This document shows, one piece after another, positions 1 to 52,966 of a DNA stretch of 64,000 bases. The stretch spans positions 4,256-68,255 of the forward strand of contig CAZUVH010000006.1 in NCBI GenBank assembly GCA_964623775.1, given 5' to 3'. Source of the DNA: an uncultured Candidatus Saccharibacteria bacterium. Its GTDB lineage: Bacteria; Patescibacteriota; Minisyncoccia; Phycocordibacterales; UBA2100. How positions within the stretch are numbered: the stretch's first letter is position 1; the number at the start of each line of letters is the position of its first letter. The notes beneath the pieces are model-generated. The model did no database searches. It was not told the origin of the DNA and worked only from the letters and a program-made list of their open reading frames with translations. The position numbers and the translations under genes were made by a program.

Positions 1-947
1 CTCCGATGCTCAAAGAGGCGGTCCTTACACCAGAAGACACGCTCGGATTTCTTAAGGTCCTCATCAATTCAGACGTCTTAAAAAAATTCCTCGTCGATCA
101 GGAAGTTGATTTTGCATACGAGACAGAAGACAAATTCCGTTTCCGAGGTAATGCGTACTTCCAGCGCGGGACAATCGGCATCGCGCTGCGCCTCATCTTG
201 AAGAAGATCCGTACGGTCGCAGAACTCAATTTGCCGGATGTCCTCGCAAGTTTTGCGCGCAAATCTCAGGGATTTTTCCTCGTTGTCGGCCCGGTAGGGC
301 AGGGCAAGACCACGACACTCGCCGCACTCATCGATCTCATCAATACAGAACGCATGGAGCACATCGTGACGATCGAAGATCCGATCGAATACATTTTCGA
401 ACCCAAGCAATCGCTCATCGATCAGCGCGAAGTGCGTATCGATACCAAGGATTTCGCGACGGCGCTTGAGTCGGCTTTCCGCCAAGACATCGACGTCCTT
501 CTCGTGGGCGAAATGCGAGGGCAAGATACCATGGCTGCAGCCGTCACCGCCGCCGAGACCGGCCACCTCGTCTTTTCCACGCTCCACACAAACAACGCCG
601 CCCAGACAATCGACCGCATCATTGATACGTTCCCGGGGACGCAGCAAGACCAGATACGTCTTCAGCTCGCCTCCTCCCTTGCGGGGATCTTTTCCCAGCG
701 CCTCATTCCGCGCATTTCGGGCGGTCTCGTACCCGCGTATGAGCTTCTCATCAACAACAAAGCGGTCGCAAACCTCATCCGTGAGAAACGCACGCATGAG
801 ATCAATACCGTCATCGAGACGGGTTCTTCAGAAGGCATGATCGATATGAATCGCTCACTCGCCGAGCTCGTCGCGCGCGGAGAGGTCACGGTAGAAAATG
901 CGTACCAGTACTCACTCAATCCAAACGTGTTGAATAAATTGCTATGA
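1..947 (+). CDS. pilT: Twitching motility ATPase PilT, 5'-truncated by the window edge
   Basis: Walker A GPVGQGKTTT; HIVTIEDPIEY and GEMRGQDTMAAAVTAAETGHLVFSTLHT motifs typical of PilT/GspE-family retraction ATPases; the ORF runs off the window start. Confidence 0.85.
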   Translation, partial: PMLKEAVLTPEDTLGFLKVLINSDVLKKFLVDQEVDFAYETEDKFRFRGNAYFQRGTIGIALRLILKKIRTVAELNLPDVLASFARKSQGFFLVVGPVGQGKTTTLAALIDLINTERMEHIVTIEDPIEYIFEPKQSLIDQREVRIDTKDFATALESAFRQDIDVLLVGEMRGQDTMAAAVTAAETGHLVFSTLHTNNAAQTIDRIIDTFPGTQQDQIRLQLASSLAGIFSQRLIPRISGGLVPAYELLINNKAVANLIREKRTHEINTVIETGSSEGMIDMNRSLAELVARGEVTVENAYQYSLNPNVLNKLL

Positions 948-972
948 GCAAAGCGAATTACATGGTTTTCAA

Positions 973-1046
973 CCCAGCACCTTTCGCAAAAGGTGCTGGG
1001 CGTAAGTTATTTCTAAGCTCGCTCGTGCTCGCTAAGAAAAACTAAC
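973..1046 (+). promoter_or_regulatory. Hairpin (CCCAGCACC..GGTGCTGGG) plus conserved roughly 65-nt leader ending in CTAACATGGCTC, upstream of pilC; homologous to the leader upstream of ftsX
   Basis: 12-bp stem at 973..1000 followed by GTAAG..TTTCTAAGCTCG..CGCTAAGAA..CTAACATG, which is about 85% identical to 27611..27671. Confidence 0.4.
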
Positions 1047-2255
1047 ATGGCTCAATTTTCGTACAGTGCGCTCGACAACCAAGGGAATACGCGAGACGGC
1101 ACGATTGATGCCGTCAATATCGATATCGCGATCACCGCGCTCCAGCGTCGCGGGCTTGTTGTTGCCCAGATAAATCCCGTCGAGGCCGAGCACACGTTTA
1201 GAGAGCGCATCCCATTCCTCGACCGCATCACCAATGCCGACGTGGTCATGGTCTCTCGCCAAATCACGACGCTTTTCCAGGCTCAAGTCTCGGCGCTTCG
1301 CGCGTTCCGCTTGCTCGCGTCCGAGGCACGCACGCCGCAGCTGGGCGCACGCTTGAGCGAGATTGCCAATGACATCCAAAGCGGCAGCTCGATCTCAGCC
1401 GCGCTCTCTTCGCACTCCGAAATCTTCTCGCAGTTTTACGTCAACATGGTGCGCGCAGGTGAGGAGACCGGCAAGCTCGATGAGACCTTTGCCTACCTTG
1501 CCGATTACCTCGACCGCAACTACGAAATCACACAAAAGGCGAGAAATGCTCTCGTCTACCCGGCGTTCATCATCTTCACGTTCATTGTCGTCATGATCCT
1601 CATGCTCACACTCGTCATCCCGCGACTGGCGGACATGTTGACCGAGGTAGGGCAAGACATCCCAATCTATACAAAAATCGTCATCGGACTCTCGGAATTC
1701 TTGCGCCACTACTTCCTCCTCTTGTTTGCGGCCTTCGTAATCGGAGCCGGTATTCTCGTGCGCTACCTGCGCACTCCGGTTGGCCGCATCCTCTTTTCGC
1801 AGGCGCGATTGCAGACACCCGCTATTGGCAACATCTTCAAAAAGATTTTTCTCTCGCGTATGGCCGACAACCTCTCGACCATGCTCAAAAGCGGCATTCA
1901 GATCCTGCGCGGATTGGAAATCACTGCGTCGGTTGTGGAAGATCCTGTATATGAGGCGATTCTCCTTGAGGCCGCGACCGATGTGAAAGGGGGTATGCCA
2001 ATGTCCGATGCGCTCCGCAAACACCCGGAGATCCCTGGAATCATCACTGCGATGGTGAAAATCGGCGAGGAGACAGGAAATATGGCGGAAATCCTTGAGG
2101 TTATGGCGCGTTACTACCGCCGCGAGGTCAACAACGCCATAGATACGCTCGTGGAACTCATCGAGCCGTTCATCATCGTGCTTTTGGCCGTTGGCGTCGC
2201 CGTGCTCCTTGCATCCGTCCTCGTACCGATCTACAACATCGCTGCCTCTTTCTAA
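1047..2255 (+). CDS. pilC: Type IV pilus assembly platform protein PilC (GspF family)
   Basis: 402 aa, with paired T2SS-F-like domains and three membrane segments; lies between pilT and the pilin genes. Confidence 0.85.
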   Translation: MAQFSYSALDNQGNTRDGTIDAVNIDIAITALQRRGLVVAQINPVEAEHTFRERIPFLDRITNADVVMVSRQITTLFQAQVSALRAFRLLASEARTPQLGARLSEIANDIQSGSSISAALSSHSEIFSQFYVNMVRAGEETGKLDETFAYLADYLDRNYEITQKARNALVYPAFIIFTFIVVMILMLTLVIPRLADMLTEVGQDIPIYTKIVIGLSEFLRHYFLLLFAAFVIGAGILVRYLRTPVGRILFSQARLQTPAIGNIFKKIFLSRMADNLSTMLKSGIQILRGLEITASVVEDPVYEAILLEAATDVKGGMPMSDALRKHPEIPGIITAMVKIGEETGNMAEILEVMARYYRREVNNAIDTLVELIEPFIIVLLAVGVAVLLASVLVPIYNIAASF

Positions 2256-2368
2256 GAGGGCGATATCCACAGCGAGTCGTAGGGTGCCCGTAAGTGGGGT
2301 ATACAATAAAGCCACACGAAGACGTGTCTATTTATTAAGTGCATTAGCATTATTTATTTGTAACTATT

Positions 2369-2875
2369 ATGCAATTAGAACAGAAGCGCGGTTTCACCCT
2401 GATCGAACTCTTGGTGGTCATCGCAATCATCGGCCTTCTCGCATCAATCGTATTGGCCTCCCTTAACAGCGCCCGCAAAAAGAGCCGCGACGCCCGTCGT
2501 ATCGCAGACTTGAAGCAGCTCCAAAATGCGCTTGAGCTCTACGCCAACGACAACTCAGGTAATTATCCGAGTAACGCGACTACAGATGATGCTGGTGGTC
2601 AGACGGCCGCTACTGGTCTCGCAGCTCTCGTCACCGGAGGCTTCATCGCTGCAATCCCGGGCGATCCTCTTGGCGGTACTGTGATCTACTTGTACAAAAC
2701 TATTCCTTCTGGAAATACAACCGACAATGCGACCGGCTATTGCGTGGCCGCGAAGATAGAAGGCACAGCTCCGACACCATCGAGCACATGCCAGGGCGGT
2801 GCGACTCTCCTCGTGAGTGGCGACACCGATACGGGTGGATCAACTGTTGCCCCGAACTACGAAGTCGGTAACTAG
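2369..2875 (+). CDS. Type IV pilin (prepilin with N-terminal methylation motif)
   Basis: N-terminus KRGFTLIELLVVIAIIGLLASIVLASL is a class III signal peptide with the G-F-T-L-I-E cleavage/methylation site. Confidence 0.8.
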   Translation: MQLEQKRGFTLIELLVVIAIIGLLASIVLASLNSARKKSRDARRIADLKQLQNALELYANDNSGNYPSNATTDDAGGQTAATGLAALVTGGFIAAIPGDPLGGTVIYLYKTIPSGNTTDNATGYCVAAKIEGTAPTPSSTCQGGATLLVSGDTDTGGSTVAPNYEVGN

Positions 2876-2892
2876 TTTTCTCAGAAAACCTC

Positions 2893-3480
2893 ATGACACC
2901 AAAAACGTCAGAAAGGTTTTCACAGAACCACGCCCCCAAGGGGCGTGGTTCTGGGTTTAGTCTCATCGAGCTCCTCGTCGTGATCGCAATCATCGGTATC
3001 CTCTCCGCGATTGTCCTCTCATCACTCAGTGGTTCGCGCAAAAGGGGGCGCGACAGTCGTCGTGTTGCTGATGTCGCTCAGCTTAAGCTCGCGCTTGAGC
3101 TCTATTACGACGCGAATCAGCAGTATCCCACCGTGCTCTCATCGCTCACGGCGCCAGGATATATCCCCGCTATTCCAAAAGACCCGAAATCAAATCTTGA
3201 TTATGCATACGTAGCCCTCAAGGGCGCTTCGACCAATCCCGCGGTGTGCGCGAGCTATCACCTCGGGGCAAAGCTCGAGATAGACACAACAGCCAATTCC
3301 GGATCGCCGTTCCTCGATGACAAAGACGCCACCGTGGGCGGCACGTACGGTACGGGAGTGCAGAATGGCCCGGTATGTACAGGGAGTGCGTGGGCAGGGA
3401 ATACGGATATTGCCGCAAGCGCGAGCGATTTTGATGGCAGCAGCGACGCAACGAATCTCGTATACGACATGCGTCCGTAA
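2893..3480 (+). CDS. Type IV pilin paralog
   Basis: SGFSLIELLVVIAIIGILSAIVL prepilin motif; the RKRGRDSRRVADV..LELYY region is shared with the neighbouring pilins. Confidence 0.75.
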   Translation: MTPKTSERFSQNHAPKGRGSGFSLIELLVVIAIIGILSAIVLSSLSGSRKRGRDSRRVADVAQLKLALELYYDANQQYPTVLSSLTAPGYIPAIPKDPKSNLDYAYVALKGASTNPAVCASYHLGAKLEIDTTANSGSPFLDDKDATVGGTYGTGVQNGPVCTGSAWAGNTDIAASASDFDGSSDATNLVYDMRP

Positions 3481-3504
3481 TTTTCACAATTTATTTAATA
3501 CATC

Positions 3505-3999
3505 ATGAATACAGATTCACGGGGCCGAAAGGGTTTTACGCTCATTGAGCTCCTCGTTGTCATGGCGATCATTGGTCTTGCCGCAGCAGTAGTCCTCGCT
3601 TCTATGAGCGGTGCTCGTAAAAAGAGCCGCGACGCGAGGCGGCAAGCGGATCTCAAGCAGATTCACAATGCGCTTGAGCTCTACGTGAGCGACAACAAGA
3701 CATCCCCGACGACCGCCCAAGGGCTCGCCGTGCTCGCTCCGAATTTTATTGCAGCGATTCCTCCTGAACCACGTGGGGGATCGGGCGCATATGGATACGT
3801 GCAAGTAGGGGCAAGTGGGTACGTGATCGGGGCGATTATGGAGACAGTGGGGCAGGTGTCGCCACTCAACACCGATTACGATGGCGCTCAAAATAGCATG
3901 TCTATCAACGGTATCGCAGCAGGCGCGGGGAGTGCCGCAAATTGCAACGCGAATGCGGGCCTTGCGACGGAAGCTGTCTATTGCGAGTACTGGCCGTGA
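3505..3999 (+). CDS. Type IV pilin paralog
   Basis: KGFTLIELLVVMAIIGLAAAVVLAS prepilin motif; third tandem pilin. Confidence 0.75.
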   Translation: MNTDSRGRKGFTLIELLVVMAIIGLAAAVVLASMSGARKKSRDARRQADLKQIHNALELYVSDNKTSPTTAQGLAVLAPNFIAAIPPEPRGGSGAYGYVQVGASGYVIGAIMETVGQVSPLNTDYDGAQNSMSINGIAAGAGSAANCNANAGLATEAVYCEYWP

Positions 4000-4091
4000 T
4001 CGTTCGTCAGAAGTGTACACAAAGAACTCCGCAGGAGTTTTTTGTTTTTTGTGCGCATCCGGCTGGTAATCCACGCTATAATCGAGATCAC

Positions 4092-4892
4092 ATGCTCATG
4101 CTCGATATTGCGCTCCTGGGATTTGGTCTCATCATCGGAAGTTTTCTCAACGTATTGATTCTGCGGCACGGCGAGCGTTCTATCGGGGGGAGAAGTGCGT
4201 GCATGTCGTGCGGCCGCACACTGACATCCATGGATCTCATTCCTGTGCTCTCGTGGGTGATGCTCCGAGGGAAATGCCGCACCTGCAAAGCTCCGATTTC
4301 CATCCAGTATCCAATTGTGGAGGCCGCGACGGGCATCTGTTTTGTCGTTATTGGCAATGCGTTCTTTCAATATGGCTTCGAGATGTCGTGGCACTCACTG
4401 ATTGTTGTGCCGTACCTCGCCATCGTAGCGCTCCTCATCGCAATTACTGTGTACGACCTTCGTCACATGATTATTCCCGATGAGTGGGCGTATCTTTTTG
4501 CAGCGATCGCTTTCGTGACATCGCTTGTATCTATGGATTCAGGAGCGAGTGTCCTCGCGGTGATTTTGGGAGGACCGATCGCCGCATTTCCACTCTTTGC
4601 GCTGTGGTTTGTTTCAAGAGGGAGATGGATGGGGCTCGGAGATCCAAAGCTCGCGCTCGGTATTGGGTGGCTGCTCGGACCTTGGAACGGACTCATCGCC
4701 ATCTTCTTCGCATTTGTGATTGGTGCAGTCATCTCTCTTTGCGTTCTTATCCCCGTAAGTCGACTGCGACATGCAGGGGAACAGATTACAATTAAAAGTG
4801 AGGTGCCGTTTGGTCCCTTTCTTGTCGCGAGCACGGCTCTGGTATGGCTCATGACGATGTATGGGATCCCGCTCCCTCTCTTTACATGGTAA
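4092..4892 (+). CDS. pilD: Prepilin peptidase / N-methyltransferase (A24 family)
   Basis: Start taken at ATG 4092 (MLMLDIALLGF). Zn-binding CxxC..CxxC (CMSCGRTL..CRTCKAP) and a multi-TM body typical of PilD. Confidence 0.8.
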   Translation: MLMLDIALLGFGLIIGSFLNVLILRHGERSIGGRSACMSCGRTLTSMDLIPVLSWVMLRGKCRTCKAPISIQYPIVEAATGICFVVIGNAFFQYGFEMSWHSLIVVPYLAIVALLIAITVYDLRHMIIPDEWAYLFAAIAFVTSLVSMDSGASVLAVILGGPIAAFPLFALWFVSRGRWMGLGDPKLALGIGWLLGPWNGLIAIFFAFVIGAVISLCVLIPVSRLRHAGEQITIKSEVPFGPFLVASTALVWLMTMYGIPLPLFTW

Positions 4893-5530
4893 AAAAGGTA
4901 CCGAAAAGTACATCCACTGGGTTTACCCTCATAGAAATGCTCGTCGTCGTCGGGGTTATCGTCGTCGTGACGTCGGTCGTGCTCGCCAATAATTCAAGAT
5001 TCGGCGGTACCGTTTTGCTTCAAAATCTCGCCTACGATATCGCGCTCTCAAGCCGCGAGACACAAATCTACGGCGTGTCGGTAACGCGCTTCCAGACGTC
5101 GTTTACGGCCTCGTTTGGCATACACTTCGACGTATCGACACCCGCCTCCTCCAAGGTGTACACCGTTTTTGCCGACGCCGCGGCGACCGGTGCGGACAAC
5201 GGCCACTACGATTGCGTGGCGCCAGGGACGAGCGACTGCGAGATCGTACAAGCCACCAATATCACCCGTGGGTACTATATCTCTGAGGTGTGCATCACGG
5301 GCTCCGGCGCCGAAGATTGTACGAATAAAGTACTCGACGTCATCTACAAACACCCCGAGCCCGATGCCTACATATATGCGTGCCCGACGACGTCCACATG
5401 CGGCTCTCCGGGGACACAGTATCAGCGCGCGAGAGTCGTCGTCGCGTCTCCGCGCGGCGATACGATGAATATCTGCATAGATCTCAATGGACAGATTTCC
5501 ATACATGCCGGCAGTTCCTGCACATATTAA
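4886..5530 (+). CDS. Pseudopilin / minor pilin
   Basis: Start at ATG 4886 (MVKKVPKSTSTGFTLIEMLVVVGVIVVV); its 5' end overlaps the pilD stop. Confidence 0.7.
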   Translation: MVKKVPKSTSTGFTLIEMLVVVGVIVVVTSVVLANNSRFGGTVLLQNLAYDIALSSRETQIYGVSVTRFQTSFTASFGIHFDVSTPASSKVYTVFADAAATGADNGHYDCVAPGTSDCEIVQATNITRGYYISEVCITGSGAEDCTNKVLDVIYKHPEPDAYIYACPTTSTCGSPGTQYQRARVVVASPRGDTMNICIDLNGQISIHAGSSCTY

Positions 5531-5536
5531 TACGGT

Positions 5537-6187
5537 ATGGAGTACAGAGTAGAGAGTATGGAGCAAGAGAAAACACATCACGGTGTGCCTTTACGCCATA
5601 CGCGAAACTCTGAGCGCGGCTTTACGCTCATTGAAATGATCGTCGCTGTCGGACTCTTTGCGGTCGTGATGGTTATTTGTGTGTCGACGCTCTTTGCACT
5701 CGTCAATGCGAATCGAAAAGCGCAGGCGCTCCAATCCGTCATGAACAACCTCGACATCGCACTCGACGGCATGGCGAGGGCCATACGCGAGGGAAGTCAC
5801 TATCACTGCGGAAGTGCAGGAGATCCCACCGCGACACGGGATTGCGCCACAGGCGACACGTTGTTCCAATTCGAGCGCTATGGCGGTAATACGAGCGTGT
5901 TTACCGACCAGTGGTACTACGTATACGACTCCGACGGATCTGTCTGTGGGAGCAAAAGAATCTGTAAGTCGGAGCAGGGTGGTGCAGCCGGTACGTTCTA
6001 TCCGCTCACGGCGCCGGAGGTCACGATCGATGCCATGACGTTCTACACGATCGGCACGACGCGCACCGATACGGTGCAGCCGAAAGTCGTCATAGTGATC
6101 AAGGGCACAGCCGCTCCCGCAAACGCAAAGACAAAGAGCACATTCCACATCCAGGCAGCTGCGACGCAGCGACTCATTGATCTATGA
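5537..6187 (+). CDS. Pseudopilin / minor pilin
   Basis: RGFTLIEMIVAVGLFAVVMV motif after a roughly 27-aa leader. Confidence 0.65.
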   Translation: MEYRVESMEQEKTHHGVPLRHTRNSERGFTLIEMIVAVGLFAVVMVICVSTLFALVNANRKAQALQSVMNNLDIALDGMARAIREGSHYHCGSAGDPTATRDCATGDTLFQFERYGGNTSVFTDQWYYVYDSDGSVCGSKRICKSEQGGAAGTFYPLTAPEVTIDAMTFYTIGTTRTDTVQPKVVIVIKGTAAPANAKTKSTFHIQAAATQRLIDL

Positions 6188-7155
6188 TTAAACGTATAGC
6201 GTACAGTGTATGGCGTATGGCGGGAAAAATACAATCCCGCATAGAGAGCACTCGCGCCACTCCCTCCATACTCAATACCCCATACTCTATACGTTCTGGG
6301 TTTACTCTCGTCGAGACGCTCGTCGCGATTTCACTGCTCTCGATCGCAATCGTAGCGCCGATGTCGCTCACGACGCAAAGCCTCGTCGGTGCCTATTACG
6401 CACGCGACCAGGTCACCGCGTTTTTCCTTGCACAAGAGGCGATCGAAGCGGTGCGCAGCGCGCGCGATGCCAACGTGCTCGCGACCGCACTCGGTACGCC
6501 GACGGACCTCATGACAGGCATCCCTTCCTCTGGCGCAGCCTTTACGGTTGATGCGCACACCGTACCAGTGACGATGTCGCTTTGCTCTGGCACCTGCGCG
6601 CCCTTACAGACCGACGGCGAATTCTACGGATACCAGAGCGGATGGTCCGATACGAATTTCACGCGCTACGTCACCGCCACCTATGTGCCAGGGACGAGTA
6701 ACAACGAGATCGAAATATCCGCAACCGTCGTGTGGCAGACTGCCGCATACGAGCCGCGCACATTCACGCTCAAGGCAAATTTGTATCGATGGGTTTTTGA
6801 TTCGAGTGCGGTGACGGTTGAGGAAGGGAGCACTCCGCCACCCGCCGTGACAAATCTCACTGTCTCGTGTCCATCTCCGGGCACGTCTGCTGCCATCAAC
6901 TGGGCGGCGTCTCCAGGCGCGACCTCGTACGGCGTAAATGTAAACAACGACACAAATCCATGGGCGCCTGTCCGCTGCGACGGTACAATCAATGACGGCA
7001 ACACCAACGATCTTTGCTGGGCCGAGGTGGCTTCCCCCGCATACACATTTCCCTTCGGGATAGCGGGGACGGGTTACTGGGTCACTGTTTATGCAGAAAA
7101 TTCTAATGGGATCTCGCCTGTAAGTCAGGTAGTGAATTTCACGTGCGCATCATAG
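6184..7155 (+). CDS. Pseudopilin with a C-terminal fibronectin-III-like domain
   Basis: SGFTLVETLVAISLLSIAIV motif; C-terminus PPAVTNLTVSCPSPGTSAAINWAASPGATSYGVNVNN..WVTVYAENSNGISP resembles an FN3 fold. Confidence 0.6.
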   Translation: MIKRIAYSVWRMAGKIQSRIESTRATPSILNTPYSIRSGFTLVETLVAISLLSIAIVAPMSLTTQSLVGAYYARDQVTAFFLAQEAIEAVRSARDANVLATALGTPTDLMTGIPSSGAAFTVDAHTVPVTMSLCSGTCAPLQTDGEFYGYQSGWSDTNFTRYVTATYVPGTSNNEIEISATVVWQTAAYEPRTFTLKANLYRWVFDSSAVTVEEGSTPPPAVTNLTVSCPSPGTSAAINWAASPGATSYGVNVNNDTNPWAPVRCDGTINDGNTNDLCWAEVASPAYTFPFGIAGTGYWVTVYAENSNGISPVSQVVNFTCAS

Positions 7156-14024: not shown

Positions 14025-14116
14025 ACATTTCAGCGCACGACCGATCAGGTACGGCGCTTTTTCTTTATCTAAAATATTCACGCAAAAATTCCGCTTTCGC
14101 GGAATCCTTGCATTTT

Positions 14117-14224
14117 CGTGTTGCGGGGGCAAGAACCCTGGGAAACCCACGGTTTTCCCAGACCTTCCTCCACGGGGAAACAAATGTTTCCCCGACCCCC
14201 TTCAATTCCAGCCCCCGCAACACG
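14117..14224. repeat. tRNA-associated structured repeat element, copy X: core with two hairpins, closed by arms that copy the 3' end of the adjacent tRNA-fMet
   Basis: 14117..14130 CGTGTTGCGGGGGC is identical to the tRNA 3' end region (plus strand); 14203..14224 is its 22-nt inverse complement. The core CTGGGAAACCCACGGTTTTCCCAG..CGGGGAAACAAATGTTTCCCCG is about 85% identical to the reverse complement of 37610..37680. Confidence 0.5.
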
Positions 14225-14274
14225 CTCTTAAAACAAAAACGCCTCCTTAAAGGAAGTGTTTTTGTCATTACGTG

Positions 14275-14346
14275 TTGCGGGGGCTGGAATTGCACCAGCG
14301 ACCTCCAGGTTATGAGCCTGGCGAGCTACTCCTGCTCCACCCCGCT
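14275..14346 (-). tRNA. tRNA-Met (initiator-like, anticodon CAU), no encoded CCA
   Basis: Reverse complement reads GCGGGGTGGAGCAGGAGTAGCTCGCCAGGCTCATAACCTGGAGGTCGCTGGTGCAATTCCAGCCCCCGCAACA, a near-match to E. coli tRNA-fMet including the three G-C pairs in the anticodon stem. Confidence 0.8.
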
Positions 14347-16597: not shown

Positions 16598-16852
16598 CTA
16601 TAGCAAAGTGTTCCTCAGTCTTTTACGAAGCTGCGCGTAAGCTCTACCTTTCAATTTTAATGCCGCTTCACGTAATCGAGCATCTTTCTCGACTTTATAT
16701 GCTTCGTAATAGAGTAGCTCAAGAGGTCTTCGAGGCCTGGTCGATTTCACATCGCCATCGTTATGTTCTTTCAGGCGTCGTTTAAGATCCGTAGTTGAGC
16801 CGATGTAGCTTTTCCCGTCACTCTTGCTGCGAATTACATATACGTAAAACAT
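16598..16852 (-). CDS. GIY-YIG nuclease family protein (small, YhbQ/UPF0213-like)
   Basis: YVYVIRSKSDGKSYIGSTTDLKRRLKEHN is a GIY-YIG motif in an 84-aa protein. Confidence 0.75.
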   Translation of the reverse strand: MFYVYVIRSKSDGKSYIGSTTDLKRRLKEHNDGDVKSTRPRRPLELLYYEAYKVEKDARLREAALKLKGRAYAQLRKRLRNTLL

Positions 16853-16863
16853 AACTGATTCAG

Positions 16864-16968
16864 GGTGTCAGGACACCACACCAATAGCTGTCACTTGTAA
16901 TCACATCTCAAAATACCATATGCACCGGCGTCTGATTCCGTTGAGAATTTCAACTATTGGTGTGGTGT
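16864..16968. mobile_element. MITE-like palindromic element, copy 1, inserted at the 3' end of tRNA-Met(CAU)
   Basis: Terminal inverted repeats ACACCACACCAATAGCTG (16873..) and CAACTATTGGTGTGGTGT (..16968); a flanking direct copy GGTGTCAGG (16864..16872) repeats the tRNA 3' end. The same repeat core CACACCAATAGCTG recurs at 33101..33208. Confidence 0.5.
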
Positions 16969-17039
16969 CAGGGGCGGGAGTCGAACCCGCGACCTTAGCG
17001 TTATGAATGCTATGCTCTAACCATCTGAGCTACCCTGAC
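16963..17039 (-). tRNA. tRNA-Met / Ile2 (anticodon CAU), CCA encoded
   Basis: Reverse complement GTCAGGGTAGCTCAGATGGTTAGAGCATAGCATTCATAACGCTAAGGTCGCGGGTTCGACTCCCGCCCCTGACACCA gives a cloverleaf with a CAU anticodon; elongator Met versus lysidine-modified Ile cannot be told apart by eye. Confidence 0.8.
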
Positions 17040-20556: not shown

Positions 20557-20843
20557 CGCGAGTGACGGGACTCGAACCCGCAGCCTCTTCCGTGCACGTT
20601 ATCCGCTATTTTCATAGTGGCATGGACTATATCTTCACCATAGAAGGAAATTCCGTAGGTGCTCCGGTATCTAGTCTCTACGGCGCCCCCAACTTAATTC
20701 AGAAGGGGTTCCCTCGGTATTCGCATATCCGTCAGATTGACGAACTTAGCCTTCACCGATATCCCAGAGAGTTTCAATCGGCCTTTTCGACAGAAAGCTG
20801 CACATCTACAGGGAAGTGCTCTAACCAATTGAGCTACACCCGC
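20557..20843 (-). tRNA. tRNA-Asp (GUC) interrupted by a group I intron in the anticodon loop; no encoded CCA
   Basis: Exon 1 20843..20808 (GCGGGTGTAGCTCAATTGGTTAGAGCACTTCCCTGT) and exon 2 20594..20557 (CACGGAAGAGGCTGCGGGTTCGAGTCCCGTCACTCGCG) splice to an anticodon loop CUGUCAC and a T-arm identical to E. coli tRNA-Asp. G73, C38 and G10 all fit Asp identity. Confidence 0.75.
20595..20807 (-). other. Group I intron (about 213 nt, IC3-like) inside tRNA-Asp
   Basis: 5' splice site after U and a terminal G; P7-like GTAGAGACTAGA..GAAGATATAGTCC closely resembles the Azoarcus and Tetrahymena P7 and guanosine-binding-site sequences. Confidence 0.7.
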
Positions 20844-21535
20844 ATTTGATACAGAGTCTGCATCGCCCTCTTGAATATACGACGTTTTCGAGGCAAGCAG
20901 AGGTCTGTAGCAGCCACATTATGATACATGAGTCTATAGAGTGCAAGGCTGTCGCGATGACTAAGTATCAGTTCGAACCCACTGCGATTACTTTTTTTCA
21001 CAATAAATCCCTTCTTAATCCCGTGTGTCTTCAGGGCATTATGTAACCCGACAAGGAAAGTATTACTTCCAGAAATGAAACGTGAAGAAAATACCCATCT
21101 TTCTTTGTCTCGATCTTTTGCCCAATGTTTTTTGAAATATACATTGCCATCCCCGTCAAAGTAGCCACGCACAAAATCACCGATATACTCGGCGGGAACC
21201 GGAGGAAAAAGTATTATTTTTGATTTATTTTGCGAAAATCCACGAGCTTTCAAGTCCGCGAACATCTTTAAGCTACCGAATTGTATCCGGTATGCGGGCT
21301 TCCACTTCTCATTCATCTCATTTAGTTTTCTCACTCCAATGCGATGGCTCGATTTAAATGCATTACGAACGTGCGTGATCAGGATCTTGTCGGTGCTGTG
21401 GAATTCAATAAAATGTGCGCCGCGATTATTTTTGATCATTGCTCCGTCCGCGGCAAAATAGCCGAGCACATATGCCATCCGAGACGACCAGGTGCTAAAA
21501 AAATCGTGATCAACTTCTTTAAAAACAGGTGCCAC
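20834..21535 (-). CDS. LAGLIDADG homing endonuclease (double-motif), free-standing; its last 10 nt overlap the tRNA-Asp 5' end
   Basis: Motifs YVLGYFAADGAMI and VRGYFDGDGNVY; the stop codon TAG sits inside the tRNA acceptor-stem sequence GCGGGTGTAG. Confidence 0.8.
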   Translation of the reverse strand: MAPVFKEVDHDFFSTWSSRMAYVLGYFAADGAMIKNNRGAHFIEFHSTDKILITHVRNAFKSSHRIGVRKLNEMNEKWKPAYRIQFGSLKMFADLKARGFSQNKSKIILFPPVPAEYIGDFVRGYFDGDGNVYFKKHWAKDRDKERWVFSSRFISGSNTFLVGLHNALKTHGIKKGFIVKKSNRSGFELILSHRDSLALYRLMYHNVAATDLCLPRKRRIFKRAMQTLYQMRV

Positions 21536-23468: not shown

Positions 23469-23726
23469 GCCGACGTAGCTCAGTTGGTAGAGCACGTCCT
23501 TGGTAAAGAAAATTGCCCGCTGGTGGAGCAATCTACCAGATGTAACTCGAATAACGGTTAAAGGCCTCCCGGAGGTTCAGACCGTGGCGAATCGACCGGA
23601 TTCGCCCGAACGACTGACAAGAGCGACTCACGTAGTCGAATATACAGTCTAATCCTCTGATAATTCATAAACAGAGGTAGGAAATGAAGGACGAGGTCAC
23701 CGGTTCAATCCCGGTCGTCGGCTCCA
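23469..23726 (+). tRNA. tRNA-Thr (GGU) interrupted by a group I intron; CCA encoded
   Basis: Exon 1 23469..23504 (GCCGACGTAGCTCAGTTGGTAGAGCACGTCCTTGGT) and exon 2 23687..23726 (AAGGACGAGGTCACCGGTTCAATCCCGGTCGTCGGCTCCA) give an anticodon loop UUGGUAA and a perfect acceptor stem. Confidence 0.75.
23505..23686 (+). other. Small group I-like intron (about 182 nt) in tRNA-Thr(GGU)
   Basis: 5' splice site after U36 and a terminal G at 23686; internal GACTG..CAGTC (P7-like) and CGACTCACGTAGTCG hairpins. Less clearly conserved than the tRNA-Asp intron. Confidence 0.55.
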
Positions 23727-23781
23727 AATGCTAGGGCTATATGCAGGCCACTTTAAAAAATTAAAGTGGTATGATGTTACG

Positions 23782-37504: not shown

Positions 37505-37575
37505 TGCGGGATCGTCTAATGGTAGGACTACTGCCTCTGGAGCAGTGTATCTTGGTTCGAGTCCAAGTCCCGCAG
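37505..37575 (+). tRNA. tRNA-Gln (CUG), no encoded CCA
   Basis: TGCGGGATCGTCTAATGGTAGGACTACTGCCTCTGGAGCAGTGTATCTTGGTTCGAGTCCAAGTCCCGCAG, with a 3-bp D-stem typical of Gln/Glu tRNAs and anticodon loop CUCUGGA. Confidence 0.8.
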
Positions 37576-37595
37576 CTAACGAACGAAGTGAGGAA

Positions 37596-37695
37596 GATGC
37601 GGGACTTGGATTGGGAAGGGGTCGGGAAACGGGAGTTTCCCGTGGAGGAAGGTTTGGGAAAACCGTGGGTTTCCCAGTCGTCCTTGTCCCGCAGC
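37596..37695. repeat. tRNA-associated structured repeat element, copy Y: same core as 14117..14224 in inverse orientation, with arms copying the tRNA-Gln 3' end
   Basis: 37596..37609 GATGCGGGACTTGG is the inverse complement of the tRNA 3' end CCAAGTCCCGCAGC (1 mismatch); 37685..37695 TGTCCCGCAGC is a direct copy. The core hairpins are CGGGAAAC..GTTTCCCG and TGGGAAA..TTTCCCA. Confidence 0.5.
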
Positions 37696-37757
37696 AAATA
37701 TAGTCTCATTTTTTGCTGGGTAGACCATTGTGTGGCCCATGGTACGATTGGGCCCAT

Positions 37758-38660
37758 ATGAAAAACATCATCATCACAGTTCTTGTCATAGTCTTTGCCG
37801 GTGCCGGCACGTATTTTTATATGCAGCGTGCGCCGGGTACGGTAGATGTCGTCAGTAATAATCAGCCAGCAGCGCCTGTCGCGACCTCGACCGAAGGGCA
37901 GCAGTCCTCACTCGAGAGTAATGAGACCGTCATTGGCAAATCCGTTCAAGGTAACAATATCAGCGCATTTAAATATGGATCAGGGTCGAAGAAAATCGTT
38001 TTTGTCGGCGGTATTCACGGCGGATATGAATGGAATACCGTTCTCGTCGCGTACGAATTGATGGATTATTTGAAAGCAAATCCGGGCACACTTCCTGCAA
38101 ATGTAGAGGTGACAGTTATCCCGGTCCTCAATCCCGACGGCCTCAACAAAGTAGTGGGCAAAGCGGGTCGCTTTGCCGCTGTGGATGTCCCAGTATCGCA
38201 GGAAGTGCTTATCTCCGGTCGATTCAATGCCAACAACGTCGATTTGAACCGCAACTTTGATTGCGATTGGAAGCCTTCTGGTATGTGGCAGAACACTGCC
38301 GTTGAAGGTGGAAGCGCGGTCTTCTCGGAGCCGGAGAGTCAGGCGATGAAAGCATTTATCGAAGCGTACGCGCCGACTGCCGTCGTCGCATGGTACAGCG
38401 CGGCTGGGGGAGTCTATTCATCCAATTGTCAGGGTGGCATTTTGCCTCAGACGAAGACATTGAACGCTGTATATTCAAAAGCCTCGAAATATCCTGCACA
38501 CGAAGTGTTCGACAATTACGCAATCACAGGCGACATGACAAACTGGCTTGCCAAGATCAAGATTCCGGCGATCAGTGTTTTGTTGACCAACCATCAGGAT
38601 ACGGAGTGGGATAAAAATCTCGAGGGCGTGAAAGCGGTGCTTCAGTATTACAGCAAGTAA
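37758..38660 (+). CDS. M14-family zinc carboxypeptidase-like protein (murein peptide amidase-like), secreted
   Basis: N-terminal TM/signal; GGIHGGYEWNT (H..E zinc ligands) and VDLNRNFDC (Asn-Arg substrate anchor) motifs. Confidence 0.6.
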   Translation: MKNIIITVLVIVFAGAGTYFYMQRAPGTVDVVSNNQPAAPVATSTEGQQSSLESNETVIGKSVQGNNISAFKYGSGSKKIVFVGGIHGGYEWNTVLVAYELMDYLKANPGTLPANVEVTVIPVLNPDGLNKVVGKAGRFAAVDVPVSQEVLISGRFNANNVDLNRNFDCDWKPSGMWQNTAVEGGSAVFSEPESQAMKAFIEAYAPTAVVAWYSAAGGVYSSNCQGGILPQTKTLNAVYSKASKYPAHEVFDNYAITGDMTNWLAKIKIPAISVLLTNHQDTEWDKNLEGVKAVLQYYSK

Positions 38661-39544: not shown

Positions 39545-39790
39545 ATGTACTTCATATACATTCTCGAGTGCAAAGACGGTTCACTCTATACCGGTATCAC
39601 GACAGACGTGGCTCGGAGATTTGAACAGCATAAAGCGGGAAAAGGTGGCGCATATACACGGTCGCACGGAGCAAAGAAAATTTTGTATACGGAGAAAAAA
39701 CTCGATAGAAGTCGTGCTCTGAGGCGGGAAGCCGAGATCAAAAGTTGGTCACGAGAAAGGAAGCTTTCTCTCACACGATCACACCTGTAA
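39545..39790 (+). CDS. GIY-YIG nuclease family protein (small, UPF0213-like)
   Basis: MYFIYILECKDGSLYTGITTDVARRFEQH GIY-YIG motif; 81 aa. Confidence 0.7.
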   Translation: MYFIYILECKDGSLYTGITTDVARRFEQHKAGKGGAYTRSHGAKKILYTEKKLDRSRALRREAEIKSWSRERKLSLTRSHL

Positions 39791-50500: not shown

Positions 50501-51121
50501 ATGAGTGAACAACAGATCGCCAAGCTCGCTGGTAAGATTGTCGAGCATCAAACGTTCCTCAGCGCACTCTCAACCGATGACGCCCAGTGGGCGATCATGA
50601 ACCCGAAGGACGCGATTGCGATCTTCTGCGAAGCGGTGAAGAGCCGTACCGAGAAGGTCGTCGAGAAACTCCTCGAATCCGTCGCCTCGTTCAAGGTGCC
50701 GGGCGCCAAGGAGTTCATCGCCAAGAAGCGCTTCGTCGTCGATACCTCCGAGAATGCGCGCGTGCGCATTTCGTGGCTCGGTGGCAACTTCAAGACGAAC
50801 TTCCTCGGGAAGACCGAGACCAATGTCGTCGAATGCGAGCTCAAACTCAAGAAGCTTCGTAAAGCTTCGCTCGATGCTTCCATCATCGTGGAGCAGGGTG
50901 GCGAGGAGAAGGCCGAGATCAGCTTGTGCGAGTACTACGAGACCCTTGCACATAAGCAGGCGACTCGGGACTTCTCGTGGCTTGTCGCGTACATCCGCGA
51001 CGTGAACGGCATCCTCTGGGCAGTCAGTGCCCGCTGGGGCGGTGGCGGCTGGCGCGTCGAGGCCTACTCCGTCGACTACCCGCGCGGCTGGGATGCTGGC
51101 TGCGAGTTCGTCTCTCGCTGA
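50501..51121 (+). CDS. DGR target protein (the variable repeat occupies its last 106 nt)
   Basis: The 3' end 51014..51119 is the VR of the downstream TR. The C-terminus WAVSARWGGGGWRVEAYSVDYPRGWDAGCEFVSR maps onto TR AAC (Asn) codons. Confidence 0.7.
   Translation: MSEQQIAKLAGKIVEHQTFLSALSTDDAQWAIMNPKDAIAIFCEAVKSRTEKVVEKLLESVASFKVPGAKEFIAKKRFVVDTSENARVRISWLGGNFKTNFLGKTETNVVECELKLKKLRKASLDASIIVEQGGEEKAEISLCEYYETLAHKQATRDFSWLVAYIRDVNGILWAVSARWGGGGWRVEAYSVDYPRGWDAGCEFVSR
51014..51119 (+). repeat. DGR variable repeat (VR)
   Basis: 106 nt with 89 identities to the TR; all 17 mismatches fall at TR adenines. Confidence 0.8.
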
Positions 51122-51437
51122 TCCTGTAGTCCTCTGCGTTTGCACCTTTGACCCTCTGAGTCTTTGTCACTTTGACAAAATTTGGAGGGTCTTTTTTCAT
51201 ATACAATGAGACACGAGGAACGCTCTGGCGCGACGGCCATGGCTTTCGCGCAGCGCCTCGGATATTCGTGAGCGAGAATTGCGAGCGGCATGCCGTGCGC
51301 GAGTGTGTTTGCGGAAATTCTACAAAAAAAGAAATAGGATCGGTGCGTTGCACTGGCGGACTTTGAAGTCCCACATTCGATACAGCGGCTTAGAGTATTC
51401 GAACTGCAGTGATATGGGTGGTGCGGCGCACAAATGG

Positions 51438-51543
51438 CTCTGGGCAGTCAATGCCAACTGGAACGATGACGGCTGGAACGTCGAGGCCAACTCCGTCGAC
51501 AACCCGAACAGCTGGAATGCTGGCAACGAGTTCGTCTCTCGCT
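51438..51543 (+). repeat. DGR template repeat (TR), non-coding
   Basis: Same 106-nt register as the VR, with AAC at every diversified codon; located between the target gene and the Avd-like/RT genes. Confidence 0.8.
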
Positions 51544-51560
51544 ACCCCTTCTTTCCCCGC

Positions 51561-51917
51561 TCAACCCTCTTTGTTGAGTGGGGTTTTCGTTAAGATTCCT
51601 TTGCGCCAACCGCCGATCATTCGACCCGTTTCTTCAATGAGTGCTCCAAGTTCTTCAAAGTGTTTATTTGCTATCAACTTTGCCTCCCATGCGATGTGGA
51701 CGAAAAAGCGCAGAGAATCGGTGATGCCGACTGCTCTTGTCAGCAGGGGAAGTTTCTCATGCGTGCCCGCGTATGTTGCCACACGTAGCGTTTCGAGAAG
51801 ATCAAGAAATAGTAGGTCTATTTTTGATCCGATTCCGAACCGCTCGTCACGCGATATGTTACGGCGGATGGGCAGCCACGTGCGGTATAGTTTCTTCACA
51901 TGTTCAACGACAGGCAA
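51561..51917 (-). CDS. Four-helix-bundle protein (23S rRNA IVS / Avd-like DGR accessory protein)
   Basis: 118 aa, start codon TTG or GTG; the helical pattern LLFLDLLETLRVATYA..LTRAVGITDSLRFFVHIAWEAKLI..FEELGALIEETGRMIGGW is typical of the four-helix-bundle family that includes DGR Avd. The family assignment is recalled from memory, not searched. Confidence 0.65.
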   Translation of the reverse strand: MPVVEHVKKLYRTWLPIRRNISRDERFGIGSKIDLLFLDLLETLRVATYAGTHEKLPLLTRAVGITDSLRFFVHIAWEAKLIANKHFEELGALIEETGRMIGGWRKGILTKTPLNKEG

Positions 51918-52966
51918 GACTCGGTTGGGGGGGGGGTCGTACGGGACGGGTTCAGTTCACTCATAGCTACGAGGATATCATTTCGATAGAAAATTTCCTT
52001 GCGGCGTGGAAAGAGTTCGTAAAGGGTAAACGTAAGAAGAAAGATGTGCAGGAATTCCAATACCGTCTGATGAACAATGTTCTCGCACTCCATCGGGATC
52101 TCGCGACGAAGATGTACAAGCACGGCGAATATCAGCACTTTAAGATCAACGATCCAAAGCCCCGTGATATTAACAAGGCGACCGTCCGTGACCGTCTGCT
52201 TCACCATGCGATATACCGAAAACTCTACCCATTCTTCGATCGAACGTTCATTGCCGACTCGTACTCGTGTCGGAAAGGGAAGGGGACGCACCGTGCTATG
52301 AACCGGTTTCGAGATTTCGCATACAGGGTGTCAAAAAATCACACACGCACGTGCTGGGTACTCAAGTGCGATATTCGCAAATTCTTCGCCTCAATCGACC
52401 AAAAGATTCTTCTCGATATCGTCGCGGACTATGTACCTGATAAGAATATCCTCGGACTCATTGCCGAAGTCGTCGGCAGTTTCAATTGCCCCCAATTGTT
52501 CACGGCCGTTGATAATAGGGGGAAATCAAAGAAAGGACTTCCGCTCGGTAATCTCACATCGCAACTCCTCGTGAATATCTACATGAATGAGTTCGATCAG
52601 TTCGTAAAGCATAAACTGAAAGTAAAGTATTACATCCGCTACGCCGACGATTTCGTAGTTCTCTCCCATGATAGGGCACAGCTGGTAGAAATGGAGCGAT
52701 ATATCGCTCCATTTCTGAAGGAACGGTTGTTACTCGAATTACATCCGAACAAAGTATTTATCAAGACGCTTGCATCCGGAGTGGATTTTCTGGGGTGGGT
52801 GCACTTTCCCGATCATCGAGTGTTACGGACAGTGACGAAGCGGCGGATGGCACGCCGCACAGCGGGACTCGCAGAGGAGAGTCCGATTGTCCAGTCATAC
52901 CTCGGCCTCACGTCGTACGGGAATACTGAGAAAGTGCGTCATGAAGTGAGAAAGAATCTTATTTGA
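51900..52966 (+). CDS. DGR reverse transcriptase (5' end split across two frames at a G10 tract)
   Basis: RT motifs including LPLGNLTSQLLVNIYMN (DGR-type IGxxxSQ motif 4) and YIRYADDFVV (YxDD). The conserved N-terminal region SYEDIISIENFLAAWKEF lies in frame 2, while the only upstream ATG (51900) is in frame 0, separated by G10 at 51927..51936. Confidence 0.85.

Follow-up and report, generated by a model that had tools for sequence, protein, structure and literature searches.

Small structured elements with arms copied from the adjoining gene end form a widespread, apparently undescribed family in Patescibacteria

Tyrosine-integrase islands and prophages occupy tRNA genes at sublocations that were reportedly divided into classes by Williams in 2002. 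Two small elements adjoin tRNA genes in the DNA analyzed here, a 64,000-nucleotide stretch from an uncultured Candidatus Saccharibacteria bacterium (the window), and each has a conserved core set between an inverted and a direct copy of the neighbouring tRNA 3' end. As in the islands, insertion is in the T-loop or 3' part of the gene, the gene stays intact through a 3' end that is present twice as a direct repeat, and the block of identity runs from a fixed point in a stem-loop to a variable outer end. The elements differ from the islands in that the insert measures 90-150 nt and has no integrase, and in that an extra inverted copy of the target, which att sites lack, lies beside the core. Moreover, islands use one cognate tRNA per lineage, whereas one core meets about 20 tRNAs and several protein genes, a single core subtype being found at at least nine isoacceptors.

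Miniature inverted-repeat transposable elements (MITEs) and REPINs are likewise small, non-coding, dispersed and hairpin-forming, and are presumably mobilised in trans or passively. Their inverted repeats, however, are fixed and family-specific (with a fixed short target duplication in MITEs), whereas the present elements have a repeat derived from the target and a long duplication of variable length. Repetitive extragenic palindromic (REP) sequences and REPINs associated with RAYT are built on one palindrome with a fixed 5' tetranucleotide; the conserved part of the elements comprises two different hairpins in direct orientation and a purine tract, and no Y1 transposase domain was found within the window. 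Two similar hairpins in the same orientation and a strand-specific structure are also features of IS200/IS605-type elements, from which the elements differ by their long duplications and inverted arms; neither TnpA nor TnpB was found in the window. The palindromic elements of Rickettsia are selfish and tolerate coding contexts, lying in frame inside genes and being translated. The cores studied here are mostly stop-free and share that tolerance, but here duplication of the gene end restores the gene, and the functional open reading frame (ORF) does not include the element. Group I intron internal guides, group II exon-binding sites and transposon RNA guides also combine a structured core with a variable segment complementary to the insertion site. 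Here, in contrast, there is no ribozyme-sized core (66 nt) or Rfam match, the tRNA and ORFs upstream are intact, the 13-24 nt complementarity is rewritten at each site and the element is not removed from the gene product. Finally, template switching at short inverted repeats is documented as a source of inverted triplications, in the form of tandem inversion duplication and origin-dependent inverted-repeat amplification (PMC4689423, PMC10766183). With these events the elements share the direct-inverted-direct order of one segment and an inner junction at a short quasi-palindrome (the T-arm, or a 5-bp hairpin in L33); the outer junction, at a trailer hairpin, is palindromic in some copies but not in those of the window, and the elements, too, would need no dedicated enzyme. 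Those events are kilobase-scale, sporadic and cargo-free, whereas the unit of the elements is 10-70 nt, the inner junction always holds a conserved, structured, multi-copy core, and the arrangement recurs at defined gene ends phylum-wide.

An earlier reading of the window from its sequence alone (the sequence-only reading) had reported two tRNA-adjacent loci with a common core and with inverted and direct arms. Both loci were confirmed, with arms of 21 and 14 nt at tRNA-Met and of 13 and 10 nt at tRNA-Gln (Table 1). Read in the sense of the tRNA, the two copies have the same order: tRNA, spacer, inverted arm, purine tract, hairpin A, linker TGGAGGAAGGT, hairpin B, a junction of about 7 nt and the direct arm, the conserved core being about 66 nt long. 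Hairpin B contains a 20-mer that has exactly two occurrences in the window (none expected from shuffles), and the covariance model of the family matched these two copies and nothing else in the 64 kb. The predicted fold of each copy consists of a closing stem and two hairpins, with z-scores of -6.4 and -3.6 against shuffles. An Rfam scan of the window matched only the four tRNAs at gathering score and nothing at the elements. Both target tRNAs lack an encoded CCA, as had been pointed out, but this is a general trait of tRNA genes in these genomes and is not linked to the element.

In one scan of species-representative genomes the query GGGAAAACCNNGGGTTTCCC gave at least 117 loci, of which about 110 contain the full core, GRRRGGGGTC-hairpin A-GTGGAGGAAGGNNT-hairpin B. 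Among the matches listed, copies were found in more than 80 assemblies of Patescibacteria (candidate phyla radiation bacteria), the source of nearly all of them; the hosts include Kaiser-, Yonath-, Nomura-, Zambryski- and Taylorbacteria, Paceibacterota and Minisyncoccia, together with many metagenome-assembled genomes labelled Saccharibacteria. The few matches in other phyla were without the rest of the core and represent chance matches. Several assemblies had 3-5 loci apiece, and the SURF_41 genome holds tRNA and protein-gene copies together (L004, L013, L091, L112, L117). The search of other genomes proposed by the sequence-only reading has thus yielded at least about 110 further copies, with flanks that match the neighbouring gene end. 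Among viral contigs there was one match, unrelated to the element, and no phage link was found. In 28 loci Rfam matched nothing on the elements, even with E allowed to reach 1, and known ribozymes and riboswitches were therefore rejected. Within the library searched, no paper with the motif or describing such elements was found. The elements are a large, widespread and apparently undescribed family in Patescibacteria.

The layout was always the same: the gene body, its intact end (X), a spacer, an inverted copy (X'), the core and a second direct copy (X''). X' inverts the initial 6-24 nt of what is duplicated, usually together with a few nucleotides to the left of it, and X frequently includes the trailer or terminator. 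A tRNA on the same strand ended shortly upstream in at least 81 family copies and in five variants with insertions in the core. The distance from the tRNA end to hairpin B was mostly 48-170 nt, rising to about 360 nt where other elements or tRNAs intervene. About 20 isoacceptors were targeted and the orientation was strictly constant. Some apparent non-tRNA copies proved to follow intron-bearing tRNAs missed by ARAGORN (L009, L058, L099) or to be cut by contig ends.

The best ungapped match to the 3' end of the copy's own tRNA averaged 13.5 for the direct and 13.1 for the inverted arm (86 copies), against 5.5 and 6.3 when tRNAs were swapped between loci. For a 12-mer made of the T-stem 3' strand and the acceptor 3' strand, mismatches in 82 copies were 1.8 (direct), 3.4 (inverted) and 5.4 (control), and the direct copy was perfect in 36 of the 82. 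An exact copy of at least 10 nt of the tRNA end was present for 76 of the 85 tRNAs followed by the core. The match between arms and tRNA is not due to chance. The claim that the core is kept while the arms vary with the adjoining gene, made from two loci, therefore holds across genomes (own-tRNA match 13 versus 5-6 when swapped); the objection to a mobile element with fixed ends also stands, since the arms vary by copy and follow the local gene. The arms frequently extended 1-8 nt beyond the discriminator into the trailer and CCA was never seen, indicating that they were copied from gene DNA or a precursor and not from mature tRNA; retrovirus-like priming or copying from mature tRNA was rejected for this reason. 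One tRNA type may occur with or without an element in different genomes, as shown by tRNA-Thr(CGT), which has none in the window and one in L030.

On the other hand, specificity for tRNAs did not hold. Copies without a tRNA adjoin the ends of protein genes (L33, S9, EF-G-like, LepA-like, RNase H, GT4) and duplicate those ends, stop or start codon included. The last 17 or so codons and the stop codon were duplicated in ribosomal protein L33 (three genomes), the C-terminus in S9 (four genomes) and the end of an unnamed gene at locus L115. In copies on the opposite strand the duplicated part is the beginning of the gene, start codon included, over 15-20 codons; the genes encode an EF-G-like GTPase, a LepA-like GTPase, RNase H and a GT4 glycosyltransferase (two genomes). 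The EF-G-like and LepA-like insertions are at a homologous codon boundary, AH(V/I)|D, in the G1 motif of the two paralogous GTPases. The targets as a whole have no common sequence motif. The sequence-only reading had held that copies far from any tRNA would point to a plain MITE. Such copies exist, but their arms copy the adjoining protein-gene ends, so that the idea of templating is generalised and the element is not reduced to a plain MITE. These results show that insertion takes place within the last 15-70 nt of a conserved gene, most commonly in the tRNA T-loop around position 59/60, in one orientation only, and that the arms are copied from local target DNA and not carried as fixed ends. 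As the gene end is duplicated, the gene survives the insertion. Element and displaced gene end can, in predicted folds, form a long hairpin with the core as its cap.

In the tRNA copies the direct duplication mostly starts at T60 (TCC). On its outer side it may stop at the discriminator or extend as far as 54 nt past the encoded CCA end, in which case the terminator is included; its length ranges from about 8 to 71 nt. The inner end of X' falls anywhere between positions 49 and 56. Hairpin B and TCC are separated by a T-loop-like stretch, which is a variant borne by the element and not a decayed local copy: junction variant GTGAGATAGCGAAGCG is common to 17 copies at at least nine isoacceptors, and GTTCGCAG, GTTCTA and GTGAGATA also recur. 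A stray TTCGAA stands at the junction of the EF-G-like gene copy. X' bears the complement of the local T-loop whereas X'' has the element-borne variant, indicating that X' was written from the functional gene or from the uninterrupted target. Fold-back copying of X'' into X' was rejected on the same evidence. The modules ACGAACGAAGTGAG and GCGAAGC are frequent in the spacer, and their enrichment is confined to the sense strand (19 GCGAAGC mini-hairpins in sense, 1 in antisense orientation).

Comparison of the duplicated ends gave some indication of age and origin. At L102 an insert of 91 nt, from another core family, separates a perfect 71-nt duplication whose unit spans exactly foot to foot of a stem-loop, and this insertion is recent. 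In L035 the two copies of the terminator have diverged by compensatory changes. In L33, X and X'' of one genome are more alike than the same segments are between genomes; in S9, two synonymous versions of the C-terminus trade proximal and distal places between L019 and L117. Duplication in situ and import by recombination both seem to occur.

Covariance-model building on the collected copies, also suggested by the sequence-only reading, was carried out. Hairpin A showed compensatory changes at 7 of 9 pairs (64 cells), a value reached in none of 500 shuffles. The only departures from Watson-Crick pairing in this hairpin are G.T, never A.C, indicating a fold of the sense strand, as RNA or single-stranded DNA. 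The core is thus shown to be under strand-specific structural selection as two hairpins. The arms had no strand bias (G.U 31, A.C 20). Mirror-symmetric covariation links the purine tract on the 5' side of hairpin A to the 5' strand of its stem, as in AAGGGGG/GGGGAAA, AGAGGGG/GGGAGAG and GAGAGGG/GGAGAAC, with T tolerated opposite A. Positions -5/+5 were A/A in 29 cases, G/G in 24, T/A in 5 and A/G in 3 (mutual information, MI, 0.76); for -6/+6 MI was 0.49, and the MI matrix was diagonal (shuffle p < 0.001). Mirror symmetry is impossible by Watson-Crick pairing, and the G.GC, A.AT, T.AT rule is the pattern of an antiparallel purine-motif triplex; purine tract and hairpin A fit a putative purine-motif triple helix. 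Polypurine reverse-Hoogsteen hairpins and intramolecular H-DNA triplexes have a purine mirror repeat beside a purine-pyrimidine stem. The elements resemble them in the mirror tract by the stem and in the G.G-C, A.A-T and T.A-T combinations; they differ in that the module is a natural, covarying part of a repeated element, predicted from sequence.

No stop codon was found in any of the six frames of 72 of 96 cores, compared with 18% of dinucleotide shuffles and 1.8% of genomic 66-mers, and by sequence reading the EF-G-like and LepA-like leader fragments continue through the core. The linker GGAGGAAGG resembles a Shine-Dalgarno site 5 nt ahead of an NTG that opens a short ORF (M/L-GKPWVSQ...). 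X'' was in frame with this NTG in all 8 same-strand protein-gene copies (L33, S9). ORFs in frame 0 terminated earlier than those in other frames (p = 5e-5), the early end being seen in tRNA contexts, and coupling of the NTG ORF to downstream genes was not enriched over other frames. In window copy 2 (37643-37761) the TGA of the NTG ORF overlaps the ATG of an M14 peptidase gene at 37758-37761 (ATGA), probably by chance.

The main core is not the only one used in this way. The fetched loci contain 192 tRNAs, 85 of them followed by the main core. Among the other 107, 27 are still followed by at least 10 nt copied from their own 3' end. Most of these 27 show the same X, X', core, X'' frame, occupied by a hybrid core or by any of at least three unrelated cores; none of these other cores had an Rfam match. 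There is thus a superfamily of at least four unrelated cores with one architecture. Tandem arrays were found in L029, L030, L067 and L101, and in L029 a near-perfect 44-nt copy of the tRNA-Gln 3' half lies between the two elements. The elongator tRNA-Met of the window has the architecture without a core (X, 65 nt, X' and an abutting X''), which may be a footprint left by excision, a precursor state or a trace of some other element. A GIY-YIG nuclease ORF follows this arrangement (Table 1); as a partner enzyme this nuclease was unconvincing, since the 0.9 Mb of loci had only 4 such ORFs, of which 2 were near elements.

We favour, with moderate confidence, the view that these are non-autonomous mobile DNA elements, a superfamily of at least four cores widespread in Patescibacteria, with target-templated arms. 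Among the three options offered by the sequence-only reading, repeated insertion with target-templated ends fits best. The description of the family is well supported; the mechanism is put forward as a hypothesis. We tentatively suggest that the direct-inverted-direct pattern is produced by template switching during replication or repair, the nascent strand detouring through an existing copy. Switching at short quasi-palindromes would write this order as in an inverted triplication, one switch point being the T-arm (or a 5-bp hairpin in L33) and the other the trailer hairpin. The detour through the existing copy would be aligned by the T-loop homology that flanks every tRNA-borne core, which would explain the preference for tRNAs, the fixed orientation, the donor-type junction variants and the stray TTCGAA at the EF-G-like copy. 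Once settled in a conserved gene, the cassette would also spread between lineages by homologous recombination via the duplicated end, as a few cases suggest. Under the template-switch model the spacer that separates X from X' should be palindromic, as it is in L039, L071, L076 and L086. The elements may possibly represent a new selfish class without ends of its own, in which structured cores (hairpins and putative triplex) force or exploit strand switching at quasi-palindromes such as the tRNA T-arm and copies are written with arms from the target. In a variant of this reading X' would be the rewritable guide of a nucleic-acid-guided insertion system.

Several observations weigh against templating in situ by strand switching. 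The spacer is not palindromic in either window copy, being a terminator at tRNA-Met and a conserved module without symmetric flanks at tRNA-Gln. In some copies X' has conserved modules on both sides, and in this it looks less like a by-product of copying than like a programmable guide; an enzyme could be encoded elsewhere in these genomes. At L102 X' matches the local tRNA at 13 of 16 positions only, despite the perfect duplication, so that at least some cassettes seem to bring along an X' made beforehand. The S9 and L035 duplicates resemble orthologues of different lineages, for which import by recombination fits better than copying in situ. The copies at the loci counted above are phylogenetically related, so that the counts exceed the number of independent events. 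Furthermore, no empty and filled pair of alleles from one population was recovered, and insertion is deduced from presence and absence in distant genomes and from the 71-nt perfect duplication. In a synteny search for the empty allele, the closest homologues of PepF, whose gene lies beside tRNA-Met, were 71% and 61% identical and had no tRNA on their contigs there. Exact-match scans of metagenome contigs for the predicted empty and filled junctions of both window sites gave no match, and all-versus-all BLAST of the locus flanks revealed orthologous filled sites (tRNA-Phe in L035, L075 and L107) with no clean empty partner.

An enzyme acting on folded single-stranded DNA is a serious rival to templating by strand switching, though we consider it unlikely. 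A trans-acting transposase, HUH nuclease, Cas1-like integrase or similar protein would recognise the folded core, possibly as single-stranded DNA, and target hairpins such as the T-arm; wide staggered cuts and gap filling would give the long variable duplication, and X' would act as, or be written as, a guide or splint across the insertion point, which it indeed spans. The strictly constant orientation, the left boundary fixed in the T-loop with a variable right boundary, and the foot-to-foot unit of L102, as in Cas1-type repeat duplication, agree with such catalysis. So does the strand-specific core (G.T, no A.C), and the purine-motif triple and GCGAAGC mini-hairpins, best known from DNA, would suit a single-stranded DNA intermediate. 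However, neither a candidate gene nor a related autonomous element with a transposase was found beside any of the approximately 110 copies or among the approximately 60 ORFs of the window, none of which matched a transposase or integrase in Pfam. Each of at least four unrelated cores would require recognition, the boundaries are fuzzy (see X' inner end above) and the targets share no motif.

Spread by homologous recombination alone is rather improbable as a full explanation. A homing-type cassette made of replacement gene end, terminator, X' and core would move by DNA uptake and RecA, with gene body and X'' as homology arms. The targets are indeed highly conserved (tRNA T-arm, GTPase G1 motif at a homologous codon, L33 and S9 C-termini), and the swapped synonymous versions of S9 in L019 and L117, the compensatory differences between the L035 terminators and the imperfect X' beside a perfect duplication in L102 are as expected from exchange; type IV pilus genes in the window could serve DNA uptake. 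Recombination of this kind cannot make new sites, however, whereas one core subtype with one junction variant is found at at least nine isoacceptors with arms rewritten for each tRNA, and the greater likeness of X and X'' within than between genomes in L33 also contradicts it. Homing recombination probably adds to a templating step and does not replace it.

It is very unlikely that the elements are functional structured RNAs, either a trailer or tRNA-like RNA that tRNA-processing enzymes would release because its closing stem imitates the acceptor/T helix, or an RNA in which X' regulates tRNA maturation by pairing with the 3' end. The same-strand site just downstream of tRNAs, the X':X'' helix that stops at the discriminator, the sense-strand G.U pairs and strong covariation of hairpin A would agree with an RNA, as would the conserved Shine-Dalgarno-like linker followed by NTG, the early end of frame-0 ORFs and the displaced L33 and S9 ends that are always in frame. 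A trailer RNA with obligate pairing to the acceptor stem, another option of the sequence-only reading, is nevertheless not supported: the arms lack a bias of G.U over A.C and hence strand-specific wobble, protein-gene copies have coding-sequence arms and several are antisense to the duplicated gene, and a terminator-like hairpin separates tRNA-Met from the element. In addition, no Rfam family matched, unrelated cores use the same arms, and translational coupling downstream was not enriched. An ordinary MITE or REP-like repeat with fixed ends, its likeness to tRNA being coincidental or due to a shared T-loop motif, would be small, non-coding, multi-copy, palindromic and extragenic as the elements are, but is refuted at tRNA and protein genes by arms that vary per copy and match the local gene past the T-loop into the acceptor strand, trailer and protein-coding ends, with a duplication of 8 to 71 nt.

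If arms are indeed written from the target, essential single-copy genes would be open to colonisation because the host gene end is duplicated. Mobile DNA could in this way enter streamlined genomes with single-copy tRNA and ribosomal protein genes, the element paying by copying the gene end, and a mode of mobility with terminal repeats written from the target would be added to those described. The core would be a natural, covarying instance of a purine-motif triplex, and the elements would mark hot spots of recombination between lineages. In practice, tRNA-like fragments and duplicated ends can mislead tRNA finders, gene callers and assemblers on metagenome-assembled Patescibacteria; ARAGORN calls a spurious 94-nt tRNA-His at L002 392-485 that consists of element core and X''.

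Table 1. Features of the two window copies, of the coreless locus and of related loci. Loci outside the window are given by locus number.
Feature	Position or loci	Strand	Evidence or remark
Copy 1 target, tRNA-Met(CAT), probably initiator	14274-14346	minus	ARAGORN; Rfam tRNA 56.2 bits
Copy 1 X (tRNA-Met 3' end and 4 trailer nt)	14271-14291	minus	sequence
Copy 1 spacer, 46 nt	14225-14270	minus	terminator-like hairpin 14242-14256, then T run
Copy 1 X', inverted copy, 21 nt, of AATTCCAGCCCCCGCAACACG (tRNA-Met 3' end, T-loop AATT to 4 trailer nt)	14204-14224	minus	inverted score 22
Copy 1 conserved core	14137-14203	minus	covariance model 91.5 bits; fold; alignments
Copy 1 purine tract	14195-14203	minus	
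Copy 1 hairpin A	14173-14194	minus	
Copy 1 linker GGAGGAAGG	14162-14172	minus	
Copy 1 hairpin B	14138-14161	minus	
Copy 1 junction, degenerate, T-loop-like	14131-14137	minus	overlaps last position of covariance model
Copy 1 X'', direct copy, 14 nt, GCCCCCGCAACACG	14117-14130	minus	direct score 14
Second, stronger terminator-like hairpin (15 pairs and T tail), directly after copy 1 X''	14080-14113	minus	probably terminator of displaced tRNA-Met gene end
Copy 2 target, tRNA-Gln(CTG)	37505-37576	plus	ARAGORN; Rfam
Copy 2 X	37562-37576	plus	sequence
Copy 2 spacer, 21 nt, with recurrent ACGAACGAAGTGAG module	37577-37597	plus	
Copy 2 X', inverted copy, 13 nt (TGCGGGACTTGGA), of TCCAAGTCCCGCA	37598-37610	plus	
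Copy 2 conserved core, including purine tract	37611-37678	plus	covariance model 84 bits at 37615-37678; fold
Copy 2 hairpin A	37623-37642	plus	
Copy 2 linker	37643-37653	plus	
Copy 2 hairpin B	37654-37677	plus	
Copy 2 junction, then X'' (37686-37695), direct copy, 10 nt, GTCCCGCAGC	37679-37695	plus	
Elongator tRNA-Met, architecture without core	16963-17039	minus	
Coreless locus, inverted copy of GACACCACACCAATAG	16872-16887	minus	
Coreless locus, abutting direct copy CTGACACC	16864-16871	minus	
GIY-YIG nuclease ORF after coreless arrangement	16598-16852	minus	
Second small GIY-YIG nuclease ORF	39545-39790	plus	
Family 2 cores	L013, L009, L023, L035, L101		
Family 3 cores	L016, L023, L047, L071		
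Family 4 cores	L041, L080, L086, L102, L113		
Hybrid cores	L059, L109, L074		
Two-element arrays behind one tRNA	L029 ~6650-7100; L030 ~2965-3290; L067 ~5770-6080		motif-strand coordinates

Other features of the window were also recorded. A diversity-generating retroelement occupies 50501-52963, with a reverse transcriptase ORF at 51737-52963 (RVT_1, E = 1e-22) and a 106-nt variable repeat at 51014-51119 (3' end of ORF 50501-51118) that is 84% identical to the template repeat at 51438-51543. By inspection this retroelement is unrelated to the elements in sequence and position, and a link was rejected; in contrast to such retroelements, the differences between X and X'' are not adenine-specific on inspection of the sequences.

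Two tRNA genes of the window are interrupted. tRNA-Asp(GTC), at 20560-20845 on the minus strand, was missed by both ARAGORN and the Rfam tRNA model; its anticodon loop is broken by a group I intron at 20603-20805 (RF00028, 42.5 bits, below gathering score, E = 1e-8), and a LAGLIDADG ORF (20837-21535) adjoins it. tRNA-Thr(GGT), at 23469-23727 on the plus strand, has an intron of about 180 nt after CCTTGGTAA without an Rfam match, and this intron type also interrupts tRNAs in L009 and L099. Finally, a type IV pilus/type II secretion cluster at 6-6184, which could function in DNA uptake, encodes an ATPase, a platform protein, a prepilin peptidase and several pilins with N-terminal methylation motifs.

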